A stretch of 63,008 bases of DNA, counting the filler, from Atractiella rhizophila (taxonomy: Eukaryota), in NCBI GenBank assembly GCA_021432655.1. It is 4 parts of 4 records of this genome, joined end to end, with 100 filler letters (N's around TTAATTAATTAA, not from the genome) between each part and the next. Parts side by side here need not be neighbours in the genome. Positions count along the whole stretch, not along the records: positions 25,784 to 51,376 come from MU271768.1; 3 more parts are not named here. One strand, 5' to 3'. The notes under the pieces are model-generated. The model saw nothing but the letters and a program-made list of their open reading frames with translations. It had not been told where the DNA came from and did not search any database. How positions within the stretch are numbered: the first letter of the stretch is position 1; every line of letters begins with the position of its first letter. Below, one piece after another: positions 4,175 to 58,541 of the stretch. A program made the translations under genes and the position numbers.

Positions 4175-4629
4175 GGTTTGTCTCCTGCGCTCAGAGGGAA
4201 AGGCTCGCTCCGGTCAGCTTTTTAGTGCGCGTTTTGGCAAGTTTTTCAATGGCCGAGCAGAAAGGTTTCCTCAAGTTTCTTCTGACATTCAAATTTATTC
4301 AACCATCAATATCGCCAAGTGGGGGGACTTGGTGGGGAGGTTTATTGTTTGTGAGCAATTGTCTCCCCGAATAGGACTAATCTATCGGGTAGTCATCCCT
4401 GTTCAAACATTTTTTTGTTGTTCCCAACAATTGCCAAGTTGCTAAGTTTCCCGTTTACAGTCATTTGAGCTTTGGGATATCTTAGTTATCACCTACTGCA
4501 ATTTCTGTAGTTCTGGAGTTAACTGTCCTGGAAAGGCTGAAGAGAACTTGTCTGTCTCCTGTAAGCGCCTAAGTTCACGTCCACCCTTCTCACCCATTCT
4601 CCTGCGTAGGTCTAAATAAAATCGTTAGC

Positions 4630-5968
4630 ATGTCGATGGTTTTTAATGCTGCCGTTTTTGCTGGAGGGATAGCGGTAGGAGCAGCGAGTACAGTCTTGTT
4701 TTCGACGAGGAGAGAGAAGGAAATTGCTCCTCCAGCCCCTCCTCCAGTGCCTTCTCCGACGGTAGCTCCATTACCTAGCAGGGCCTCCCTTGCGCAAACT
4801 AGCGCGTTTGATGCTCTCACTACTTTTGGCGGTAATCCAGGTACTTTTCTCATTGACTTGGAGGGTGGCACTTCTCCAACTGCTTCGTCTAGGGCCGTTC
4901 CACGATCTCTTTGTCCGTCAAGCTTACATTACCTCCTACGACCGAGTACATCGACATCCAGCTTGGACGGCCGAGCATTTGACAGCTTCCTCGCTTCTCA
5001 GGACACCTGCCGTCTCCTCACCGGAGAATGTCTCTTCTTCCAGCGCCGCTGGAGACTTAATCGTTGGTACTGGTACACAACGTGCTGGAAGCCGTGAATC
5101 TAGTTTTTTTCGAGAGGATCCAGCTGTACCTGAGTTGTTCAGGGCAAAGTTGGCAGATTATGCCAAAAGTGGATATGATAGAGGACATATGGTACGCTCT
5201 CTGTCTTCGTTCTTTCAGGTCTTAAAAATTTTCTGATTTTCTGTGAGGTGTTTAGGTGCCTGCTGCAGACGCGAAACGCTCACAATCAGCAATGGACGAA
5301 ACATTTCTTCTCACCAACATCGCTCCTCAAGTCGGGGATGGGTTCAATCGCCACTACTGGGCTTGGGTGGAAGATTTCTGTCGTCGCCTGACGGGCAAGT
5401 TCTCGGACGTCTACGTCTTCACCATCCCTCTCTATCTCCCGCGCCGGGATCCAGACGGAAAGTTTCGGGTGACATACGAGGTGATAGCGAATTCGTCTAC
5501 CATGCCTCCCACGCCAAATGTCAGTGTACCGACCCACTTTGCGAAAGTCATTCTAGCAAATACTCCCTCAGTTGCTGGGGGAAAGGGGGGCGTTGCTCAA
5601 GTTGGACTCGGGTTAGCCAGCATTGGAGCTTTCGTGTTGCCAAACCAGCCTATTCCGGACCAGACACCGTTGAGAGCGTTTGAGGTGCCAGGTTCGTGTT
5701 TTTGCAGTCTCAATATTCCAGTTGATTAATCGTGAGAACGGATGACTAGTTGAAGCCGTAGAGAAAGCATCTGGTGTGCAGTTACCTTCTTCTGCTCGAT
5801 AACCCCTAACCATTGTCTTGGGACGCAGGCTTGACTTTGTTTTCGCCCCAAGTGAAAGCCCAAGCGAAAAAGCTTTGCGACACCACAGAATGCAACGTCG
5901 TTGTGCGACACTTCGACGATGCTGCTAAAAAGAACGATAGAAAGTCATTACCTCCGCCTTCACCATGA
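4630..5968 (+). CDS. NUC1: Mitochondrial DNA/RNA non-specific endonuclease (EndoG/Nuc1)
   Basis: YDRVHRHPAWTAEHLT, SGYDRGHM|VPAADAK, ETFLLTNIAPQVGDGFNRHYWA, VSVPTHFAKVIL. Confidence 0.95.
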
Positions 5969-9506: not shown

Positions 9507-11843
9507 CTAACTGGCATCTCTGCCTGTGTACAATACGTCTTCAAGGGTTCGTGAGAAGTCTGAAACAGACGGAGAGCGACCTCGAGTGGGGTCACAATCC
9601 GGCGGCAGTTGCAGCTCGTCTTCTTGAACCTGTGAAGGAGAACTTTCTATGACAGTTGCAAACTGGTCTTCTACTTCTTTGGCCTAACTCCCAATAAGAC
9701 AAACCTCTTCGCGACTTTGTCCTTACCATGACACGCAGAGTGCACGCTTCCTGTAGCTGTTGCGCAGGTTCAGCAATATGTCGACCTCGGTACGCAAGGT
9801 GCTTCATTATACGCAGGAGCCTATCATAAAAACGCGGTCAGTACCAGGTGAAAACGCAAGGGAAATGTCAACCTCATGATGATGCCTTCACTCTCAGGAT
9901 ATCGATCCATAAAGCCACTAAGATAGCCCCAGCCGCCAGGAAGTTCGTTAAACGGTCGAAGGTTGAAGTGGAACTCGCCAGCAAAGCGGATTAAAACGAT
10001 GGGCTCTGTGTACCCTTCCCTCGTCCATCTGTCCAATGTCATTGAAGCCATGGTGAGAATAAGATGGATTTGAGCGTCGCATTGTTCATTCATTGACTTT
10101 GCAAGGTCGAGGAGCAATTTGCTATCGGGGAAGCGGCCTATAGAGTCGCTCACTAATTGTGCAACCAGAACGACATGACGCGAATTCAGTGCACGAAACA
10201 CACGGGCCACGCCAATGCTCCATGAAGCAGCGCTTCTGTCTGCCCACTCATGGTCAAATCGGAGCACTGAGTGGAGGTGCGAGCATCTTTTCTCCAATTC
10301 CTTCCGTGTCAGTTCATTGAATGCTACACCTACAATGTAACGTCAACGAGATCAAGTAGTGGTTGCTCACTAGCGTACGAATTTGGGCAATGACTCGCCG
10401 AACAGACATTAAATGCGCATAGAAGAAGTCGTCCATCATTTCCAGATCCATGATAGAAAGTGCGCGCTCAATAAAAACATCCGGGTTAATGAAAAAATCA
10501 GGAGACCATCTCTTAGACCGGGCAAACTTTCGCGCGTCTGCATCCGATCTATCCACTCCATTAGAATGCACATGAAAGTCGCGGCGCATTCACATTAAGA
10601 GTGGTTCTCCCAATTCCAGACTGTGCCTCACATCCACGCCCTATGGAAGGTTAGGCAAGCTGTGGTGAAAAGAAAGTGGCTTACATACAAATTACTGAAA
10701 TACGCATCAATTATACGAGTTCTCTCAGAGTCCGACGCTTTCTCGAAAAGTTTTGTGTAAGCTTGCCAACCTATCTGCAGTAATAACCGTCCAAGGCGAA
10801 TGGCTGGAAGGTCGTTGAATGAATTGAGAAGCACCAACAATAAGATCATTGCATCGTCTGTCGGTTCTGACAGTGGCGAGTCATGAACCGTTGCTATGGA
10901 GTAGAGATTGAAAAGCAATGTTCGGTGGGCATGGAACCGAGCCATGCCTTGTTGTGAGTAATCATAAAGTTCGTCGGACACGGATTGGCTTGGAATCGAT
11001 AGCAGAGCAGCTTTCCCAATAATTGCCTGATGATCGAAGCATGAGCCTCAGTGAGACAAGCCTGTGGACTCTTACAGAATGAAAAGAGATCTGAGCGGCA
11101 GTCGCAGCCACAAATGACATCCAGATCTTGATGAATGTTACATTAGCGCGACTCGGGAAGCGGCAGTGCAGAAAGGTTACATCGACAAATTTCCCTAGTG
11201 GTGCACGGTCAAGTTTCAGTTGCGCATAGGAAGTCCAAGTTTTAGGCACTATAGTCCTCGTATCAGGATGGGCATACTTCAAAGCTTCAGGTAGATCGGT
11301 CGAGGCAACTGGGGTCGCGAATCAGTACCTTTATGGTGCGTGAGAAGAACCACACGTCGCAGAAGGTGGTCGCCCAGCTGGAGCTGCAGATGGAAGCTTC
11401 CGATTCTTATGGCCAATTGAGCCAACTCATTTAAGAGTTACCAACATCAAACGACTTACCTCTGGCTCGTGCAAGAGCTCGCTATGTTGACTCGTTGCAG
11501 ATAACTCGATAAGGCTACAGACTGCTCCTTGTGAGGATCCAGACGAGAAATCTTGGAAGTTTGTTTCTGGGCATCATCTCTGCGCATAGAAGGAGCTTCA
11601 ATGATTGTTTGAAGAGACGAAAAACTAGCTTACGCATGAACCCGCTTTCGCTTCCTTGAGAGGAGTTGAGCGTTGAACTTGAAGGTGCAACTGTAGTCCA
11701 TCTTTAGAAGGAAATTATAACACACGGAGAGTCACGGACGATAGCTGAAGTAATTTACACCTCTCACACGGTACACGGGACCCTGAATGTGCTGGGATAC
11801 ATTCAACATCCAGCTTGCGGCATTCTTCACAACGACTCGACAT
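9507..11843 (-). CDS. Divergent Zn2Cys6 (GAL4-like) domain protein, multi-exon
   Basis: Spliced N-terminus MSSRCEECRKLDVECIPAHSGSRVPCERCKLLQLS|CTFKF..RKRKR followed by a chain of minus-strand ORF exons (10962-11282, 10628-10981, 10314-10589, 9824-10297). Last exon ends DVLYTGRDAS*. Confidence 0.65.
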
Positions 11844-12709
11844 TGTATTGGTCTTTCCCTATCGTCCACTGTTAAGATACCGGCGAACTTTTTTTCGTCG
11901 TCCTATCCTTCCTGCGACAGCATTAGCTCAGTACAAAGGTCTGCAACGCAGAGGCGATTTCTTGGAGATTGTGACATGGTCAGCTCACAACACTTGCAAT
12001 CTCTCGTAGACACTCTATACGTCCAATCGTCTACTATTAGATAGCTATCCACGACTCAAACAAAAATCCCCAAGCTCCAATAAATGGTATGTGCGACCTG
12101 CCTTACTAGATGGGGATGTGTGTCTCCTTCTGAGAATATGAGGTCCATTTTACTGTACATTCGCCCCAAGCCATTTAGCGGAGTTGCGCGTTGAACAGAA
12201 TAGGGAGAGTAATGCACTCCGTTCAAACTCTTGCACAAGTCTTGAGGTGGATGTGATCTCGGAAGCCTTTCTGAAGCGAGTCACCGCGTCGAAGAATTAT
12301 GACGAGGTCAAGATTGCCCTGGGACGGACGTGAAGGGAAATCTTTGGCCTTGTTCAGTCCGCAGATTTCTTTCAGAGAAGCATGGAGCATCTCTTCTTCA
12401 AACTTGGACTTGGAAAGGATCACCAATGCACTTTGAAAGGCAACAATGCATGGGCTTTTGCATGCTCGCAGACATTAACTAACATCTGCGGACGTTGCTC
12501 TGCTTTCTTGTCGTCATTTGTCGCGAGTTCACTCATCCATTCAGCTCTCCACTTCTTTCGAGATGTTCGACTTCATAGCTTCATGGATGCCGTCAACAAG
12601 CCTGATTCAGTGGAGCTTGCAGTACGTGACACGGCTCAGAAGCAGCCAAACTCGCATGCAGAGTCCCCAGAAGCTCTTGAACCAAGAACAGCTCACCTTG
12701 CTATTGTGC

Positions 12710-23786: not shown

Positions 23787-24562
23787 ATTGTTTAGATCTA
23801 ATGCTTGACTTGTGTCTGAAGAAGTCGATAGAGCGAGACGCCACTTGACAATAGCTTGCGCACACATCCTTTTATATCTTCGCTCTCGGCAGGACGGGAT
23901 GAGGACTGCTCCATCACTGGCCTGAACTACCGCTAGCAGTGGGGGATCTACTCCTATCTTGCCATCCAATCGAGAGACAGAACGTCATCTCCTCTCTGCT
24001 TTCGCTCCGACTCCTGGTTTGATCGATGCAATGACAGAATATTCGGATATTGATCATGTCTCCCATTCACATCCCCCACTCGACTTTGGAGGCGGGGGAA
24101 ACAAACGTGAAATTCACAGTAACGATCTTCCCGCTTCGAGTGTGATGCAACGGGTGTAACGGAGCTGAGAAATCATTGACAGTTCAAACGTGCACTCAAG
24201 CTCAGAGCAAACGCAAATGGACTGGAAAAGGTAGTGAAGTTTACTCGAAAAAAGAAAGGAGGGGATGCCAAACTTCTTGACCCGAGTCCCCATTAAAGCG
24301 TAAATCAACTTATCTATATTTCCAACTCCAGCCTGCAGGCCTGAATCCTGTCAACGGGGAACCCAAGTTCGAGTTTTGAATTACCACAATCTCATAAAAG
24401 AATTGTTAGGACAACAATGCTGCGTAGAAACAAGGGTTAAATATTATTATGGTTCGGATCGATCTTCGCATCTTTTGCCCCGACAAAATTTTCAGCTGGT
24501 TTTGTCAACTTCATTTCAGTGCTGACCTTTCGTGTCCTCGGCAGGCTTTTGGGGATATTAAC

Positions 24563-25683
24563 ATGAAGAAGTCAAATTCTCTCCAATGGAAGCCCGTAAC
24601 AGTTGCCTTTGACGACTCTGATCCCAATTTTACCTTCGACTTCGATGAGATCTCTGATGTCGAAGTGGAGTGGGAGACCTTCGACAGCGGAGCAAAAAGA
24701 GCCAAGCTGAAGCCAAAAGGGAGTCGCACTATCAGCGGGGATTTAAAACCATCAGAGCATGTCTCGGGAACTGCTGAAATCGGCGAGGATGAGGCAGGAG
24801 CTAGCAAGAAGGGGAAGAAGAGGAAGCGGGTCAAGAACAAGGATGGAGAGGAGGGTCCTGGTGGGAAGAGCAAGAAGCAGAAGGTTGATAAAAGCACAAG
24901 TGAGCCCTCAATATCACCCACAGAGGAAATTCCATTGGGTTCTCTCTCTCCTCTCGAATCATGGCCTGAACTCCCGACACATCTCCACTCTGCCATCTCC
25001 AAGCTCTCGTTCACGCAACCGACGCTCATTCAATCATCACTCGTCTCCCATCTCCCTCTCAAGCACGATGTGATTGCTACGTCTCCAACTGGAAGTGGAA
25101 AGACTTTCGCATACATGCTTCCCATCCTCTTTCACCTGTTCTCCTCGGAACCTGAAGCCCCTGAACGATCTCTCGCTCTCATCATTACTCCTACCCGCGA
25201 ACTCGCCATACAAGTTGCGGATTCTATGCAGCGAGTTCTCGACGCTTGTACTCCTTCATCCAAAGGCCACAAGAAAATCGTCACCGTAACCGGTGGATTA
25301 GCCATTCAGAAACAGAGTCGGTTGATCAATGCTCAACTGCTCGGAAAGAAGGAAGGAATACTTGTTGCCACGCCTGGAAGGTTATCAGAGATGCTGGAAG
25401 AGTTAGATGGGCTCGAAGAAAGATTGCAGAGGACGAGATTTCTAGTACTTGACGAAGCGGACAAATTGGTTGAGAAGGGCAAATTTGAGGAGCTAGAGAG
25501 GATATTGCGAATCTTTCAGAGAAAAGAGGATGAGGAGGATGAAGAGGCAATTGGAAGAGAGGATGACGGTTTAAGAACCCTGGTTTTAAGCGCCACAATG
25601 GAGAAAGGTCTAATGGGCAAGTTGGGGAAGAAGAAGTTCAAGCGATCGACTGGCTCCACAACCTTAGGTTTGTATTTCCGTTA
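24563..25683 (+). CDS. DEAD-box RNA helicase, Mak5/DDX24-like (3' truncated at contig end)
   Basis: LQWKPV N-terminus, FTQPTLIQ, PTGSGKT, PTRELAIQV, GGLAIQKQ, ATPGRL, LVLDEAD, SAT. Confidence 0.85.
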
Positions 25684-25783
25684 NNNNNNNNNNNNNNNNN
25701 NNNNNNNNNNNNNNNNNNNNNNNNNNNTTAATTAATTAANNNNNNNNNNNNNNNNNNNNNNNNNNNNNNNNNNNNNNNNNNNN
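25684..25783. other. Artificial contig linker N44-TTAATTAATTAA-N44
   Basis: 100 nt with a six-frame stop cassette; genes on both sides are truncated. Confidence 0.97.
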
Positions 25784-26106
25784 TGTGCCCCACGAGCTTT
25801 CCAAATGGTCAGCAACAGTGTCGATGAGTAAATAGGTGGCGTACCCGATGGGCCTGAGAGGTAACTCACAAGAGAGGAACTTTCAGCAACGAGGCTTTCT
25901 CTCATTTCCTCAGCCATTTCATGGTCTTCTAGCAAACGGGAAATCAGTAGGGTGAGCCAGTCTAAGGTGTATTTTCGTTCGAAGTCATCTAATCCGCATT
26001 GGATACTGGTATTCAACTGCTTCAACGTCCTCGAGATGTCAAAGCTGAGCTCGTTTTGAAGAGCTGGAAGGAAAACACTTGGTGCGGTCTTGAACGTAGA
26101 AGTCAT
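25784..26106 (-). CDS. N-terminal fragment of putative SAM-dependent protein methyltransferase (Efm2-like), cut by the contig end
   Basis: APSVFLPAL..DDFERKYTLDWLTLLISR..LVSYLSGPSG resembles the N-terminus of basidiomycete Methyltransf_16 proteins; catalytic domain not in window. Confidence 0.5.
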
Positions 26107-26519
26107 CGAGCTTCGAGTAACATGAGCATTTTTTCCAGGTTACTGGGCTCCTACCTGGGGTCACAACCAATAAATTAGACGACGATATGGATCGAACTTG
26201 GAAAAGCGTTCTTGAGTGGGCACGTGATATAAAACGACGAAAATTTTCAGTGCTGGTCCAGTGCTGGCTGTTCACAACGTTCACATCTCACATTGACCTG
26301 GTCCCCCATCTCCTCCACGAGACGTTGCCTCAAATTGCTCATGACCAATTCCTGGGTAACATTTGAATGCCAGCTACTGTGCGAATGGGCGGGGTTGGGA
26401 CGTCGAAGTGTTCTGTACGGAAATTGGAATGTTCAAGGTTGACGATCACGAACTCAGTGGCGGGTAGATCATAAGTGGGCAGTCTTTTGTGAGTATTGTG
26501 CTCCATTGCTTAGTTTGGA

Positions 26520-27294
26520 AGTTGTTATATCTAGAGTGCGAGTGTTGCGACCTCGATGACCACAAGACAGTTCTTGCAACACGACTGCTCCTGTTCGATC
26601 TGTTATTACTTTGCATGAACTACCAAGATGACAAGGCATTAACTGGCAGTAAAGAGAGTTTGACGAGAGTGAAACCTAGGAATTGATTGCAGTTCTCTTG
26701 CATCCGAGTCTACCTTGCGTATTTTCTGAGATTCTGAGGAAGCTGTCGCCGCTCGCCTGTTTAGGGCCGCTTCATAGTCAATGAAGAGCTGTGACTGGAA
26801 TGCCGTTGTTTCCTCTCCGCCGGATAAATTGTAGGAAAAGATGCAGATTTGCTCGATTGCCGGTTAGAGATTCTCTCAAGTCGAGTTGTCTTCATGAGGG
26901 TATATTTGGTCTACGCCTGATGTGGGAGTAAGATTCATACCGCGGAAAAATACTCTTTGTTGAAATCTGCGAGTGACTTCATTGCTGAAATTAATGGAAG
27001 CCCAACGGAGAAGCTTCAAGCCCTGATCGGGTCGGCCAAAGCCGGTTCGAGTGGTGGCAGAAAGGTTGCACCTCGGAGTACTCTGGTCTTTCGAATCAGT
27101 GACAGTCGGGCATCCACAGGGGCTTTGCTCGCTAGACTTTGTTCGGGACGCAGAGAAGGTGATTTCAGCAACCGTATCACCTCATGAGCCGAAATCAGTT
27201 CTTCGGAGTATGGAGGATGTGAGAAATGGTTCTTGCGGTCCGTTAATGATTCTTTTCGTCCTTCCCGACGCTCTCACTTGAGTCTCTTTGCATT
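26520..27294. CDS. Hidden multi-exon hypothetical gene, readable only as the plain complement left-to-right
   Basis: Complement gives LTLTTLELLVFCQERCADEDKLDNNETYLMVLLFRNLT|intron with ACTAAC..TAG|AQMERIKDSK..IPAKYQLLLDTD..EYSALVKK..ELRET*; exon joins not fully resolved. Confidence 0.55.
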
Positions 27295-27368
27295 TGCATG
27301 ACTGGTGATTGTAGAGTCGTGTATATGTGTTACGCTTTCAAATTCTGTTAACTGTTACATTGATGCAT

Positions 27369-28175
27369 AATCCCTACAGGCAAATTCACTGGGTACTCGC
27401 GGACGTCAACTCCTCCCAGCAAAGGACATAGGTTTTCCGTTCTCCTGCCCTTCGCAAGGTACTCGTTGACTTTGCAATGGAGGAGGTAGACTATACCACT
27501 TCGGTTTAGTGTTCTGCCGTACGAGCCGCCGACGCAAACGCAGTACTTCCAACCGCTCCGTCCCCTGACTTCGCCACTGTACTAACCTCTACCGCGCCGC
27601 TCACGGGGACCTTCCAATTCTTTAACACTACTTCTCCCTCTTCACAGCGACGACACATGACTTCTTAAACTTCCCGAACCACCTCGCTTCTCTATAACAC
27701 TGGGCTGACCTTGATCACCGTACGCTATTCTGCCCTATCTTCCATACCCTATCCTCCCTGTTGTCGCCCCTGCACCCCCTTGCTCCCTCAGTTGTTGACC
27801 TAGCCGTACTGTCACAAGGTAGGTCGATCCGTTTGTTTGTAGTCTAGGTACCAACTCCAGTAAATCGAAGGTGGAGCGCTTGACTGGTAGTAGAAGCGAC
27901 CAACCTCTTTAAAAGACTCCTTGGAACGTTTGGAACCAACTGAAACCACCTCCCTTCTGCGTCAACTAAAGACGGTGTGACACTGGAGCAACACGGCTCA
28001 TAGCTTACGTCCTATTCGTCTGGATATGGTGCTTCAACTGTGTCCTTCCTATAACTGCTCGTGCTCGTCCTAGCGAGTGACCAAACGGTTGCGTGAACTA
28101 AAAGACCGTACCGTACTCGTCAACTCTGACCAAAGTTGTTCACGAATGAGAAAGAAACGTCTTCATTGTCCGGTA
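27369..28175. CDS. Hidden Zn2Cys6 transcription factor, readable only right-to-left without complementing
   Basis: From 28175 backwards: MACYFCKER|gtaagc..cag|KIKCVGKP|gtgagc..tag|VCLSCIRYSAQRGHSVAEINCVFP..Ser/Pro-rich..GHLNGHP*. TATATAA about 75 nt upstream in the same reading. Confidence 0.85.
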
Positions 28176-28805
28176 GGATTGGGTGTTGCTGAATACCTTA
28201 ACTAGGAGACTCGTTATCATTCCTCGCCTACACTAAGGCCTCGTTAGGAATATATTGCTGCTCGTCCGTCGAGCCTGATGAATTGAAAATCTTCTTCGTG
28301 TCCAATGTTATTCCAGGGGAATACGTTTCAACTAACTCAACGTCGGCGCTGTTAGACTAGCTTCAGCGCTCCTCCAACGCGAACGCGTGGAAGCTCCACC
28401 CCCTTTTGTGCAACCACCTGTCTTGTTAGATGCCTACATCGGGCGAAGATGACAGAAATGATATCGGTGGTGTTGGTCAAGACTCTACGGTACTTTCGCA
28501 GGTGTCGCGGTTTAGGGTCTTAGGGTCCTCTATCGTTGTAAGTGGAACGAGTCGAGCTTATAACACGTGATCAGAGTCGTCATCAGCGTCGGGGGTTTGG
28601 TTGAACTGGATTATTGGCGGGCCTATACCTCTGTGCAGCGTAGAGGTTCTGGTACCAATTAGTGCGTTTAGCGCTCGTGCGCAAAATAGTCGAACCTCCT
28701 CCTTTCGGAACGGTCATTTAGGTACCTGTCCTGACACAGCCTTCATGCAGGAGCATGCGACCGAATCGCGGACTGTTGGTTCTTCAAGCTCCTAGGAGTC
28801 TTTCG

Positions 28806-29061
28806 NNNNNNNNNNNNNNNNNNNNNNNNNNNNNNNNNNNNNNNNNNNNNNNNNNNNNNNNNNNNNNNNNNNNNNNNNNNNNNNNNNNNNNNNNNNNNNN
28901 NNNNNNNNNNNNNNNNNNNNNNNNNNNNNNNNNNNNNNNNNNNNNNNNNNNNNNNNNNNNNNNNNNNNNNNNNNNNNNNNNNNNNNNNNNNNNNNNNNNN
29001 NNNNNNNNNNNNNNNNNNNNNNNNNNNNNNNNNNNNNNNNNNNNNNNNNNNNNNNNNNNNN
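28806..29061. other. 256-N gap lacking the linker cassette
   Basis: Counted Ns; separates the two reversed blocks. Confidence 0.97.
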
Positions 29062-30349
29062 GTCTAGGCCACTGTACTCACTACTCTCCGCCAAAAAGTT
29101 TCTCTGCTCACTGCCACTGTACAGCTCCTAGAGAACTAGCTAAACGAAGAACACCTACATTCCTGCCTACAGCTCGCTAAGTAGTCACGCCTAATCATAG
29201 AACGGCTAGACACACACATTTGAACGTACTCAGATGGTGAAGCGTCTTTCCTCTCGTTGCCCCTGTTTGTACATTCAATAGCTACTGGCGAACTTGTCGT
29301 AGAGGCAATGAGGGGCCTCAGCGCGAGTTTCGGTCGTGAGACTTGAAAGGCGGTAAGGGTACGTAGTTGGAGGAGTGATAAGGCCACATTCGTATCAAAG
29401 GACATCGAAATACTCGGAGTAGCTGCTGGTTTGTCTGTTGCAAAGACCCTAGATTTTAAGGCAGGAACTCTAGTAAGAGATACCAGACGCCACAGCGCTT
29501 TTCTTGAGAGAACTTTAACAATCTTCAACCTAGCATTGTGCAGGAAGACTCTACTCGCCGGCAGAAGGGGCAATCGAGGGGTGTCACAACTCCTCCCTAT
29601 GGGCGCTACCTGTCTGTTCGAAGCTAAACAACTCGTTGCTCTCCTGCCCATCCACGTCACTTCTACTGCTAACGCCAACCTTTGGTCGCTATCATCAAGT
29701 CGTACTCTCGTCGTCGATGCTTACAGAAAGGCTCCGGTCAGCCCTCCCTCTGTTCCCACAACAACTCCTAACGCCGCCGGTGCTAACAGAAAACTATCAG
29801 CGCCTGGACCATAAAGCCCACGCACCCCATCTGGTCTCAGAACTAGCGAAGAAGTAGACCTCTCACAAACTCTCAGTACCTGCCTAGTTTACCTCCCTCG
29901 CACTACAGGAACAGACCACCAGGTGCCACATTCCGAGGTAGGAGTAGGAGACTACTAGGTCGTCTGGTAAGGCCTCCCAGCCTCTTTCGGTATCGGAAGG
30001 GGAAGGGAAAGACAGAGGGGCAGGTAAAAGGGAAGGGGAAGACGCAGGGTGAGGGTGGGTATGAAGGAGGTTTGCTGAGTGAGCGTAAGACTCTTCGTCG
30101 TTGGAGTCGTCGAACTCTCCGCGAGCCCAAGGTAGAAAACAAGTGGTGGTGTAACTGTAAGAGGAAAAGAAAGGGTGGTAGTAAGTGGACACGGGCGCGG
30201 GCTCGAACTCCCTCATCTCAGACAGCACTCCATGAGCGCCAGCCGACACCTCGGACAAACCGAAATGCTTACCGGAGGGAGAGGTTCCGAAGGTCCAGAA
30301 GCAAACGTTTTAGTTGCAGCAGACTCTTTAGTATCAGACTTCTAGGGTA
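29062..30349. CDS. MPH1: 5' half of Mph1/FANCM helicase, readable right-to-left from ATG at 30349
   Basis: MGSSDYDFSDD..VRDYQ..NTLVSLPTGLGKTF..NYYRWFP..APTRPLVAQQ..TPQTIENDL..LVVDEAHKATGNYAY..LALSATPG..VIDNLH|61-nt GT-AG intron|IGKILIRTDESLDI..SSLMSPDL. Confidence 0.97.
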
Positions 30350-30920
30350 GAGTCGCGCCTCCAGCCACCGCAGTTGCAGTTCCAAAACACCACCAAAGGA
30401 ACTCCTGTTGTGTATGGTGCGCATGCTGCATTCTTGTTACTGAGCTGGTACTTGGAAGCTCTCGGGTCGTCTTCCTCCTTTACTCCAAAGATATTTCATT
30501 CAAGACAACCCGACAACCTCCGTTGTTCCGCAATATGTAGACACTCAGAAACGTCATGACATAGAAGTTCAGTTCAACCCTGTAGTACTAAACGGTCACG
30601 TATTACAGATCTTCTTAATGTTACAAGACTTGCAGTCAACGCAGTGCCACAACAAAACCCTCTGCTCTTACATCCTCCTTCAAGTCTTCCATCTAAGTTC
30701 GTAAGAGTAATTGAAGGCGGAAAGGTACAACTAGTAGTAATGTTGACCTCCGAGACTCTTTGAAGGTCGTCCGAGTTCTACGTTGCACTAAGGAGCAATA
30801 CGTATCACTATGTGAGCGGGGAGCAAGGGGCATGGACGAGTTCCGCATAACTGTTGCTGCTCGTCTTCCGGCACCTCTCAGCTCCGACACAGAGGACCAC
30901 AACTTTTCCACGCTTTATTA
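29062..30920. other. Reversed (non-complemented) sequence block B; right edge 30920-30923
   Basis: Right-to-left reading encodes MPH1 motifs and joins in frame to forward sequence at 30921/30924. Confidence 0.97.
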
Positions 30921-33900
30921 GTGAACACACTCCTTGGTCGCGGTATCCTCCATTGCTCAAGCGATCCTGAACGTCTCGCACCATTCACGGTTCAACAAGC
31001 CCAAAGCGGCTGCTTCGGTCGTGGCGCTAACCCAGCCAAGAAAGCAGCCATTCGACCGCTCCAAAACCTTGGAGCCATGGCGAGAGCGATGGGGTATTTA
31101 TGCGATGAGAGTGTGAAGATGTCGTTAGCGACTTTGAAGGGACATTTTCTGGAGGGGAAGAATAGTGACCAGAAGCAGATGAAGGAAACGGCGGGGAAGA
31201 AGGAGTTTAAAGAGCTTATTTCTGATATGGAGGAATACGTGAAGGATCCTAATTATGCGGGTCACCCAAAGATGGAGAAACTTGTCGCGCTGGTACTGGA
31301 CCATCTCGCAAACTCGACAGAGGAGACCAAGATCATCGTCTTCGCCCAATTCCGGGATTGTGTCGATGAAATTGTTGACCTTCTCGAGAAGCAAAAGCCA
31401 TTGGTGAAACCGGCGAGATTCGTCGGACAGGGAACTGATAAGTCTGGGAAGGAGGGTATCAAGCAGAAGGATCAGAAGGAGGTGATTAAGAGGTTTAGGA
31501 GGGGTGAATTCAATACTCTTGTCGCCACGTCCATTGGAGAGGAAGGCCTCGATATTGGGGAAGTCGACCTCATTATCATCTATGAAGCGCAGAAGTCACC
31601 TGTGAGGATGGTGTGTTCCTCATTCCAATGAGTCTTATCACTCTAGCAAAGTTGACTGATGGATGAGTAGCTTCAAAGGATCGGACGAACCGGTCGTGCG
31701 CGTGATGGGCGAATTGTGGTGCTCATGACGAAGGGACGGGATGAAAGTAACTGGGCGAAAGCACAGGACAACTATCAGCATGTCCAAAATGCCATCACGT
31801 CAGGCAAACTCTTTGAACTCTATGGGGATGTTGCGCGTCTCATACCAGACAAAGTCAAGCCCGAACTCAAGGAGGAAGTTATTGTTGCCAGCGAATTTGA
31901 TCCGGCCATGGTAACGGTCACAGCGAAGAGCATGAAGGCTCCTAAGGGGGCAGTCGGGGCGAAGAAGAGCAGTAAGAGATCAGTACCACAGGGAACCATA
32001 ACTGGGTTTATGAGCGCGAAGGGGTTGTTAGAAGAGATGGAGGGGAGGTCAGGAGGGAAGAAGAGAAAGAGAGCTGAGATGGAGGACGACCCGAGGCTGA
32101 ATGGAGAGCACATGAAGGAGTTCGAGAAATGGTACATGCCTCTAAAGGGCAAAAAGCCGCCACCTTCCGATCGTGTCTCGAGAACGTTCGATGTGTCCAT
32201 GGACGCATCCAATCGAACATTCGTCATTTCTAACCATTCGAGGAGCTTTGAAGCCATACGCCGCATTTTTGGGGAGAGTGGACCAGGAACAAAAGCGGAG
32301 AGCTGGAAAGCGGCTTTGGCCGGACATTGGGATGCAGCTGAACCTTTTGTAGAGTATGTGGAGGAGAGGGAGGAGGAGGAAGAGGAGAGGAAGGGGAGGC
32401 TAGAGAGGAGGAGGAAGCATAATAGAGTGGAAGGGAGAAGATGGAAATACGTAAGACCTTATCTCGGAGAGAAGAAGAAGAAGGAAATCACCTCAGATGC
32501 GGATGCGGACAAGGATGGAATGGGCATTTTGGATGACGAGGAGGAGGAGCCAGCGGGGTGTATGGACAGAGGCAAAAGTAGTTCTGGGTTTGGAAAACAC
32601 GCTGGCAAGCAATATGTCAATCCGTTCAAGATGCCTGCAATTCAGGAGAAAGACGAGTCGACGGATTGCGAACTACCCGATTTTGGCGGATCAAAATCCA
32701 TGCTTTCTATCTCAGTTTCTCCTCCAGGACGTCGAACTCCCAGTGAACAGCGTAACAACACCAGGCGGAATGACATTATCGTCCTTGACTCCCCTCCTCC
32801 AACTCCCGAAGCAATCAAAGGTCTCACAATGGATCTTGACCCCGACGGAGACGAAGAGGATGGGGAAGACCAATTTCGCGACCAAATGACTGGGATTCAC
32901 CCCTTTGGCCATTTCGATTCTTCCCCAATGCCTAGGGGAGCCGACGAACTCTCCCGACCAGTCAGCCCTACACAGTCCGTGTACCTTTCTCCTGTTTCAA
33001 AAGCAGGAAAGCGCTCGCGATCGCTACAGAACTCTGCAGAAAGCAGGAAAAAGCGAAAGCTGCCAGAGTCAATGGATATCGAGGAAGTATTCCTGGCGCA
33101 AGGTTCGGCCATCCGACCTGCTGACGCTGAACAAATTGCATCAGTGGATCCTTTGATACCTGCAGACACGATCCCGATTGAAGTTGATAAAGGCTCCCCC
33201 CCACCAGTATTCAAGGTCCCTTCCGTCCCTAGATCTGTCAAGACACCAAATCACGGCAAATATATGACATTCTCGCAAGGGTCGATGGGCTTTGATGACG
33301 ATTTCGACGTGGATGATCTCGGCGATTCAATCCTGCAACAGCTAGATCGCAGTGACACTCGACTGGCGGCGACATCGACCTCTGGCAGCAGAAAACTGAT
33401 GAGGACACCACTTTCCGCAGTTGATGGACGAGGGCAACAACCACTCTCCGTTAAATCCATTAATTCTCCTCTCGATTTCTCACAACCTGTCATTTCCCTT
33501 CGCCGGACATCGATACACTCTCTCCAAACGCAGTCACCATCCTTCGAACTCTCTCAGCCTGTTATTACACATAGGAGGCAGAGGATTCCGCTTCAAGAAG
33601 AAGTGGAGGGAGCAGACTCCTCACCTGGAACATCCCATCAGGAGGCAGTGAAAGTGTTCCGCCTGAGGAAAGCTCGCAGTAATTCTCCCTCCTCTTCGGC
33701 TGCAGTTTCTGTCATCGAAAAGGGGAAGGGGAGGCAGCGGCAGAAGCCGAAGCGCACGAGGGAGGAGAAGGAGAGGTTGAGAAGGAAGCTAGAGAGAGCA
33801 ATGATGGATATGGAAGCAGTGGATTCAGACGTGGACGCTGGAATTCTCCATAGCTCAGACGATGACGATGCAGCAGACGTCAATGAAGGTTCCTCAGATA

Positions 33901-34217
33901 TGGAGTTCATCGATAGGTCACTCGTAACTGACGGTTCGATGAGCATCTATCGTAAGTCGACTTGTTTTCACTAAGGACATAGAGCTGATGCTGCTAAAGG
34001 GAGAAGTCTTGCAACCCAAGTGCCTGGTTTCCAGCCCATGTTTCGCGGGCGAGCCTTCGCTCACGGTGATATTGCGGCTCATTTAGCGAGAAGACCTGTT
34101 CCCGTTACACCGGGGGATAAAGATGCGAGCACTGATCAATATTCGGTTGGATCTTTCGTTGTAGACGATGACGAGGACCTCCAGTTTGAGAGCTCAAGTC
34201 CATCAAGACGACGATAG
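30921..34217 (+). CDS. MPH1: 3' half of Mph1/FANCM DEAH DNA helicase
   Basis: GHPKMEKL, IIVFAQFRDCV, FVGQG, NTLVATSIGEEGLDIGEVDLII, SPVRM|LQRIGRTGRARDG; long disordered C-terminus ending YSVGSFVVDDDE. Confidence 0.95.
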
Positions 34218-37893: not shown

Positions 37894-38109
37894 TCCCTTT
37901 TCTTCTCAGTTTCAGTTCCAGTGTTTGTGTGGTGATTGTTGTGGTGAAAGGAGGATGGGAAGCGCGTTCGTGTTGTTGGATGGAAGGCGCGAAATGCCAA
38001 CTCTGTCGCAGCAAACGACAAAACGACGAATTATTTATCCGGCACATTGTTAGCTGCAACCTGTATGTCACTCCTCCACTCTGCCTGTCTCTCACTAATA
38101 CTACTACAG

Positions 38110-40020
38110 ATGTCACTGTCTCCCCACGAGCCGCCGACTGCGACCGTCGACTCCTCCCCACCCATCACCTTCTCCCCCGCCGCCTCCAAGGAGCACGACG
38201 ACTGGTTCTCCGCCCGGCAGGAGCGCATCCTATCAGGCGAGCGGGAGCGCCTAGGCCGCGCGCTGAGTGCCGTCGTCCAGTCTAACCTCGACGAGCGTTA
38301 CAACCTGTCCTCCATCCGCTTCCTCGGACTGGAGAAGACGCGCGCGTCGTTCTTGCAGAAGGCATTGGAGGATGCGCTCCGGAAACATCGGGAAATTGGG
38401 GACCAGGGACGGTTGCGCGACGTGCTTAAGACGGTGAAGGACGTCACGAGCAAGTTGGAGGGGTTTGGCATCTTTGAACAGATTGCGCCGTCGGTGGAAC
38501 ATGCTGAGGCGGGGTTGGGTGGTGCGAGGGACTTGGATGTGGTGTTTCATGTGAAGGAGGCGGCGAGGAAGTATCTCAAGACGTCGACTGACGTCGGCGA
38601 TGGAGAGGGAAGTGTGCAGGCTTTGGGAAGGGTGAGGAATGTGTTTGGAGGCGCGGAGACGGTGGAGGGTGCAATGACTTTTGGTTCTCGCACGAGGAGT
38701 GCATTCCAGGTGCGTTTCCATCTTATTTCGTGTTGGGATTTAGAAGGAAGAGAGATTGATAAAATTTGCGTGTGGAATAGTTGCGCTTCGACTCTCCCGT
38801 TTTTGCCGATCCTGACAAGAGAATTGATACCACCCTGTACGCGAGCGATACGGACCTGTCTCACTTTGCGAGCTGCACAGAGAGGTTGCACGGCTTCCAG
38901 GGCAGATTTAGGGTGCGTCTCTGCAAATCTCTATAGAGGATCAGAAAGAGTGATGAGGGAGAAGACAGTGTCTCCGCTAGGATATCACGAACTTTCATAT
39001 GATGCCGTCCTGAGGAGAATTTGCGATTTGGGACCCAGAGCGAGCATGAGGTTTGTTTGCTTTCTCCTGTCATCTCTGAAAAGGCACATAAAATAATGCT
39101 CCATAGTATGCGTGAATCTGCGGGTACAACAACCAAGTCGGCGGTTTCGCATACTGTCACCTCAGATACTAGGGAGGACGTCTTTGAGCCCTCAAAAGGT
39201 GGAATGTATTACAAGCTTACCCAGGCACGTCCTTCCTTCCTGTTTTTGCTCTCTTCGCCCTGTTAAAACTTATCCTTAAACGACTGTAGGAACTTGCTGG
39301 TCTCGGAGGAGACGCGAAACACATAAAAGGGACGGTAGACGTCCAAAAGTCACTCCCACTCTCATCCGCCGCTGTGAGCCTCTCCGTCTCCTTCTTTAGA
39401 TTTGAAAAATACCGATCTGAAAACAACAGACGCTTTCGCTAGGCTTCCGCTCAGGACTCCTCTATACCCTCTCCCCCTCACCCTCCCTCTTCTCTGACCG
39501 CTTCCACCTCGGCGGCCCTTCAAGCGTACGGATGTTTAAGCTCAACACCTTAGGGCCGAAAGACTATGGTACGTTCCCTTTCCCCTTCGATGGGCCGGCG
39601 ATAGGGCACTCAGGTTGTTGGGTCGGTCGGTTGTAGAGGACTGGGTTGGAGGAGACGCCTTCTGGGCAGCCGGCGCGAGCTTATACGCCCCCATTCCGAA
39701 AAGGACGCACTGGCCCCTCCTCCTCCACGGCTTCGTGAACGCAGGTCGCTTGGTAGCTGTCGATCGGAGTGCGTATCTCTTTCTCCTCCTCTTTCCGCGA
39801 CTACGTGTTTTGACATCTACATTGGAATGTAGAAGCGCCGCTCAGCGACTCTTTAAGAGACCTCCTCAACCCACCATCGACCTCTGTCGGCCTCGGATTA
39901 CTCTATCGCTTCTCCATTGTTCGTCTGGAGGTCAATTTGGGAGTGCCATTGGTCGCAAGTAGAGGGGATGGTACGAGGAAAGGCCTGCAATTGGGAGTGG
40001 GGATGAGCTTCCTTTCTTGA
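38110..40020 (+). CDS. SAM50: Mitochondrial outer-membrane SAM complex beta-barrel Sam50
   Basis: POTRA GLEKTRASFL..LEGFGIF, STDVGDGEGS..RNVFGGAET, ELAGLGGD, SDRFHLGGPSSVRMF, GGDAFWAAG, RLEVNLGVPL..GLQLGVGMSFLS*. Confidence 0.93.
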
Positions 40021-51376: not shown

Positions 51377-51476
51377 NNNNNNNNNNNNNNNNNNNNNNNN
51401 NNNNNNNNNNNNNNNNNNNNTTAATTAATTAANNNNNNNNNNNNNNNNNNNNNNNNNNNNNNNNNNNNNNNNNNNN
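51377..51476. other. Artificial contig linker N44-TTAATTAATTAA-N44
   Basis: Same cassette as 25684. Confidence 0.97.
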
Positions 51477-58441: not shown

Positions 58442-58541
58442 NNNNNNNNNNNNNNNNNNNNNNNNNNNNNNNNNNNNNNNNNNNNTTAATTAATTAANNN
58501 NNNNNNNNNNNNNNNNNNNNNNNNNNNNNNNNNNNNNNNNN
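58442..58541. other. Artificial contig linker N44-TTAATTAATTAA-N44
   Basis: Same cassette. Confidence 0.97.

Follow-up and report, generated by a model that had tools for sequence, protein, structure and literature searches.

The window analysed here, 63,008 nucleotides (nt) joined from four scaffold parts of the Atractiella rhizophila genome (assembly GCA_021432655.1), contains a scaffold gap of 256 N (28806..29061) that is flanked by two blocks of mirror-written text. Block A to the left of the gap (27298..28805, 1508 nt) and block B to its right (29062..30923, 1862 nt) have each been reversed in place without being complemented, which we regard with high confidence as an artefact of the sequence record. 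The flip does exist, as a data error rather than as biology. Reversal without complementing leaves neither strand of the two blocks, as displayed, as real DNA. The true locus follows the correctly written left flank (25784..27297) to position 27297, continues from 28805 down to 27298, crosses the gap, runs from 30923 down to 29062 and goes on at 30924, which 29062 directly abuts. On the plus strand of this corrected order, the sequence predicts a three-exon gene of a divergent Zn2Cys6 type and, past the gap, a full-length DEAH helicase gene of the Mph1/FANCM type. The scaffold that carries both blocks occupies 25784-51376 of the window (25,593 nt), and the blocks lie near its start.

Edges and direction of the two blocks

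Four public sequencing runs (X1, X2, X5 and X6) were compared with positions 26200-32199, of which X5 gave no contigs. X1 and X2 come from one sample and X6 from another; X6 is RNA-derived, because one of its contigs contains a spliced GT..AG joint (31609>31670). The contigs of X1, X2 and X6 follow the displayed letters between 26200 and 27297 and then once more from 30924 onward, and leave them exactly at these two positions. Past 27297, the 30-letter loose end is identical in all three runs and is the exact reverse of 28776-28805 (30/30 letters). Before 30924, the loose end equals the reverse of 29062-29091 at 29 of 30 letters, the only mismatch being the last letter. Two further X2 contigs agree with the reverse of the 29062 end of block B at 23 of 23 letters and have the letter of the window at the odd position, for which reason we read the odd letter as an allele. 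The contigs extend 1300, 1658 and 1967 nt past 27297, the last of these being an X2 contig of 2600 nt, and 1133 nt before 30924. The interval 27400-30799 is without X1, X2 or X6 contigs, and no weight was given to this missing cover. A search of metagenome contigs with the unchanged stretch 27260-27297 returned 0 matches.

These loose ends bear directly on the first-pass annotation, which had proposed that two blocks were flipped separately around the N gap. The departure of the contigs at both edges, together with the orthologue alignments described below (6/6), bears out the separate flips. For block A, reversal and complementing in place had been held to be indistinguishable; since the true DNA after 27297 begins with the mirror of 28805 downward, the block is now settled as reversed in place and not complemented. 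The left edge had been put at 26110, and the contigs move it to 27298.

Another view of the same interval came from word frequencies. In genuine DNA a word and its reverse complement are equally frequent, whereas a word and its mirror image are not. We therefore scored each word against its mirror, using strand-symmetric tables of 4-, 5- and 6-mers trained on the other parts of the window. With 5-mers, ordinary 500-nt windows scored 42.1 +/- 23.0 out of sample (n=112), and 2 of the 112 fell below zero. At their final edges, blocks A and B scored -35.4 and -43.9 per 500 nt, respectively, that is, the mirror of the normal value. By the same measure the left flank scored +41.4 per 500 nt, and its part formerly assigned to the flipped block, 26110-27297, is normal at +46.3. 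The score forms a single continuous negative interval across the gap, with change points at ~27391 and ~30944, no more than 94 and 21 nt, respectively, off the true block edges. Taken alone, this statistic cannot separate reversal from complementing.

Outside the blocks, the most negative word score (-30.1) was found at 4501-5000. This stretch was rejected as a mirrored piece, as an Endonuclease_NS gene (PF01223 on 5256-5729) has its proline-rich N-terminus here, in normal writing; the score thus shows the false-positive level of the test. A weakly mirror-like, CT-rich stretch at 39120-39870, with a drop of ~44 units in the 5-mer score, directly follows an open reading frame (ORF) of 382 codons (37948-39096). 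Its score falls inside the tail of the normal windows, and it may be promoter DNA of low complexity, or else a short piece of mirrored text, the third in the window.

The contigs also display variation of their own. Two contig versions are present at several places, for example at 31568-31736, where they have 0 and 12 differences, and small indels occur at 26734, 26909 and 27160. A pair of haplotypes, as in a dikaryon or a heterozygous strain, or else a mixture of strains is suggested by this pattern. One X2 contig jumps 69 nt within 26465-26535; the ends are AG..AG with unread letters between them, and the joint is not intron-like, so that the skip is probably an allelic indel.

The helicase gene split by block B

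Read from right to left, block B opens a frame of 460 codons with the helicase motifs I, II (DEAH) and III, which exists in the reversed reading only. The predicted exon 1 (29270..30349, read 30349 to 29270) begins with ATG and contains motif I (PTGLGKT), DEAH and SAT. It is followed by a likely intron of 61 nt (displayed 29269-29209) and by the first part of exon 2 (29062..29208, read 29208 to 29062), which continues in frame at 30924. The remainder of exon 2 (30924..31609, plus strand) is correctly written and encodes Helicase_C, with a Pfam match to PF00271 of 3.3e-18 on 30945-31628. Downstream on the plus strand are a GT..AG intron of 60 nt (31610..31669), whose removal accounts for the spliced joint in the X6 contig, and the C-terminal exon or exons (31670..33974, end approximate), which contain motif VI (QRIGRTGR) and a long low-complexity tail.

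Homology search using tblastn revealed that mirrored block B is matched by all seven full-length Mph1-type orthologues employed as queries, with E values of 1e-57 to 1e-64, and that the same seven give 0 matches to block A or B as displayed. The locus was then rebuilt in four ways: as is, with the whole unit reversed, with the unit complemented, and with the two blocks reversed separately. Only separate reversal gave one unbroken alignment across 30923|30924, in 6/6 orthologues, whereas the alignment is broken at this junction in each of the other three rebuilds. This, along with the loose end before 30924, supports the earlier proposal that block B rejoins its right flank. In the corrected order, a DEAD/DEAH-like N-terminal core is followed by Helicase_C, colinear with all six orthologues, which carry PF00270, PF04851 and PF00271.

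The full-length relatives are 1035-1490 amino acids (aa) long and possess the same three Pfam domains; among the 120 listed of 2076 matches, several have the source name ATP-dependent DNA helicase mph1/MPH1 or 3'-5' DNA helicase. The Atractiella gene shares motifs I, II (DEAH), III and VI and Helicase_C with the Mph1 / FANCM / Fml1 group of DEAH 3'-5' DNA helicases. Compared to basidiomycete orthologues, its product has 39-52% identity over ~630 residues and is colinear from the N-terminus. Once the text is turned round, it is an ordinary member of the Mph1/FANCM family, and only the record splits the gene.

A public protein of Atractiella rhizophila, P0001 (source name P-loop NTPase), is 560 aa long, 99% identical to this product and restricted to Helicase_C; the public contig that encodes it measures 25,593 nt, the same length as the present scaffold. 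Its start corresponds to 31077, which lies 153 nt past the junction and is the earliest ATG there to be in frame, as a gene caller would choose on mirrored text. At its other end, too, P0001 departs from the long open frame 31671-33974: the two are 96% identical over 549 residues, after which P0001 has a short unrelated tail, and its 3' end may be mis-modelled as well. The displayed text of block B has 29136-29720(-), of 194 aa, as its longest ORF, and a homologue search with it, aimed at a bogus public model, found none.

The probable zinc-cluster gene in block A, and the left flank

Block A, read from right to left without complementing, contains the coding elements that the first-pass annotation had described between 28175 and 27369. 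Exon 1 (28149..28175, read 28175 to 28149; 27 nt, 9 codons) starts with ATG and encodes MACYFCKER, with Cys 1 and 2. It is followed by intron 1 (displayed 28148-28104; 45 nt, GTAAGC..AG), exon 2 (28080..28103, read 28103 to 28080; 24 nt, 8 codons; KIKCVGKP, with Cys 3) and intron 2 (displayed 28079-28023; 57 nt, GTGAGC..AG). Exon 3 (27369..28022, read 28022 to 27369; 654 nt, 217 codons) begins with VCLSC, contributes Cys 4-6 and ends with TAA at 27371-27369. The predicted product of the three exons has 234 aa, and the serine- and proline-rich tail reported earlier is indeed present, with 40% S+P+T from residue 101 onward. The sequence TATATAA, formerly listed within 28175->27369, is also found, although it lies outside that range, 80 nt upstream of the ATG (28249..28255, read right to left). 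In the corrected order the 256-N gap is intergenic, 71 nt past the stop codon of this gene and 574 nt ahead of the helicase ATG.

The Zn(2)-Cys(6) family has the pattern C-x2-C-x6-C-x5-12-C-x2-C-x6-8-C. In the candidate, the spacings between successive cysteines are 2, 6, 5, 2 and 15, and its first five cysteines and basic residues agree with the family pattern. Similar to the Gal4-type Zn(2)-Cys(6) proteins (PF00172), it has an N-terminal cluster right after the start codon (C-x2-C-x6-C-x5-C-x2-C), Cys 2 and 3 with basic residues in the stretch that separates them, and a proline before Cys 4. It differs from them in the sixth cysteine, which follows after 15 residues rather than 6-8, and in its length of only 234 aa, without the middle homology domain.

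For a quantitative comparison, we built a profile from metagenome peptides. A degenerate motif yielded 116 metagenome loci, of which 88 gave open 60-aa peptides; 80 of these had six cysteines, and 78 were distinct. All 78 seed peptides were assigned to PF00172 by Pfam. The profile was run against 2,946 sequences, comprising the candidate, 200 shuffled sequences and the 2,745 ORFs that all 12 readings of the window yielded. The candidate ranked first with 16.8 bits and an E value of 9e-4, a modest score that refers to our 78-peptide profile and not to Pfam's own; its six cysteines are all aligned, the last loop being extended by an insert of 9 residues. The runner-up, at 12.3 bits, is the as-is ORF 11718-11858(-), a Cys-rich frame of 47 aa with the arrangement C-x2-C-x6-C-x11-C-x2-C, whose best Pfam matches (E 0.25-0.27) belong to unrelated families.

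Three points count against assigning the candidate to this family. The sixth cysteine is 7 residues too far away, so the PROSITE-style pattern is violated; its margin over the best control, which is itself not Zn_clus by Pfam, is no more than 4.5 bits; and no middle homology domain of fungal transcription factors was found after the cluster. We consider the 234-aa product a probable divergent Zn2Cys6 protein. The claim of a Zn2Cys6 gene hidden in block A thus holds as far as the likeness goes, and is weaker than first stated owing to the last spacing. The X6 contig that reaches 1300 nt beyond 27297, where its letters are not visible, is compatible with transcription of the region. As for other Zn2Cys6 genes in the window, the full six-Cys pattern is absent from the as-displayed and mirrored readings, and no first-half motif was found as displayed or across all 12 readings. 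Pfam search of 34 long ORFs of the window gave no fungal transcription factor.

A second gene, spliced and convergent, had been read in the plain complement of 26520-27294. There, no ORF exceeds 61 aa, each frame has 11-13 stops, and the other three readings do no worse; moreover, this interval is correctly written, so a left-to-right complement reading of it has no meaning. A further possible start, MDRTVSE followed by GTACGT, had been noted in the complement near 28723. The letters are there (28723..28743, through GTACGT to 28749), and the frame has no support as a gene, being a candidate only. Once the order is corrected, its place on the minus strand is 27380-27360, at a distance of 548 nt upstream of the zinc-cluster ATG, and it is directed away from that ATG, toward the left flank. 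Should the MDRTVSE frame be a gene, the two are head to head and not convergent.

In the left flank, Pfam search of 10 ORFs gave no family, and a homologue search with the best-scoring minus-strand ORF, 26639-26863, found none. A codon-usage scan that took in block A as well as the left flank, and that had no more than 10 ORFs for training, was too weak for exon calls. The X6 contigs span 26279-26890 without a joint. A minus-strand frame at 25786-26106, which has no Pfam family, has its ATG near 26106, at the left edge assigned earlier, and runs off the start of the scaffold.

Origin of the fault and its consequences

Most likely the fault resides in the deposited assembly, because the public helicase model begins only after block B. 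It might instead have arisen after deposition, if the mirrored blocks are absent from the deposit and entered while scaffolds were being joined into the window, or were planted there as a control. The window has been processed, being a concatenation in which artificial linkers (44 N, TTAATTAATTAA, 44 N) occupy 25684-25783, 51377-51476 and 58442-58541; yet the public helicase model is truncated and starts 153 nt past the junction, and we judge such a later origin improbable. Far less credible still is that 27298-30923 was flipped as one unit, or complemented in place. The word statistic would allow it, as it stays mirror-like without a break from one side of the gap to the other and is blind to the difference between reversal and complement, but the loose ends put 28805 beside 27297 and 29062 beside 30924, and the orthologue alignment breaks at the junction in 6/6 cases under either of these rebuilds.

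Equally close to negligible is the view that such DNA really exists as displayed, for instance as a true inversion or an unusual locus, and that its right-to-left readings are coincidental. We found no evidence for it. A true inversion is a reverse complement and can be read on the other strand, whereas here neither strand can be read; the 460-codon helicase frame matches its orthologues in the mirror reading only; and the run contigs depart from the displayed text exactly at both edges. The same property distinguishes the present case from ordinary contig misorientation, the misassembly by reverse-complement inversion. They share a position at gap or contig joins, broken gene models and reads that diverge at the breakpoints. 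However, an ordinary misoriented contig is valid DNA with its genes on the other strand, whereas blocks A and B are valid on neither.

Separate reversal of the two blocks in the record is therefore the reading we prefer, and several considerations temper it. The visible true continuation amounts to 30 letters per edge only, and the inner 1.4-1.8 kb of each block are backed by word statistics and protein homology rather than by reads. As X1 and X2 share one sample, the independent read evidence comes from two samples and not three, and this sample may be the source sample of the assembly itself. The fault could postdate deposition, against which the truncated public gene model is the sole argument, and the cause of the flip is something we infer.

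Two software slips could be envisaged as that cause. A contig end might have been extended base by base into the gap, with the outward-ordered string never turned round; on the left contig the procedure would work on the reverse complement, and a block reversed in place would result on both sides of the gap. Alternatively, a minus-oriented piece might have been complemented but not reversed. Either slip, at the gap-filling or the contig-orienting step, would give the observed picture on both gap sides, and the two would be indistinguishable. Comparison of the inner ends of blocks A and B for an overlap, which would mean a closed gap, gave only chance 11-12-mers.

Mirror-written content is missed by BLAST, six-frame translation and gene callers; it is invisible to standard searches because neither strand is valid DNA. 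Here, one gene is lost from the annotation and a DNA-repair helicase is cut to its C-terminal part, and in comparative work an intact Mph1/FANCM helicase and one zinc-cluster regulator would be scored as absent from this fungus. The strand-symmetric word test locates such blocks to ~100 nt and the loose ends of reads fix their edges to the base, so that screening and correction of whole assemblies would be feasible. The flip itself holds nothing new biologically and the hidden content is ordinary; the value lies in curation and assembly screening.

A wider reading is possible, though we think it rather less than even in probability. The fault would be systematic, with a pipeline step having mirror-written many gap flanks; the public reference would hide a noticeable number of genes from all standard searches and its proteome would include truncated models, the 560-aa helicase being one, and other assemblies from the same pipeline may share the bug. 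As part of this tentative reading, the Zn2Cys6 cluster of the 234-aa protein would stand alone, lacking a middle homology domain and having a third loop of unusual length. In the literature, which was accessible in part, a thin search found no published account of a reversed-not-complemented assembly fault, which is weak ground for absence. Within the same partial coverage, nothing on the assembly was found in the literature on the Atractiella rhizophila genome, and the papers listed for the phrase "reversed but not complemented" concern synthetic or regulatory DNA.

Just before the scaffold with the two blocks in the window, the first artificial linker (25684..25783), which joins two scaffolds, truncates another helicase gene, of the DEAD-box type (PF00270, 3.8e-32, ORF 24428-25681).

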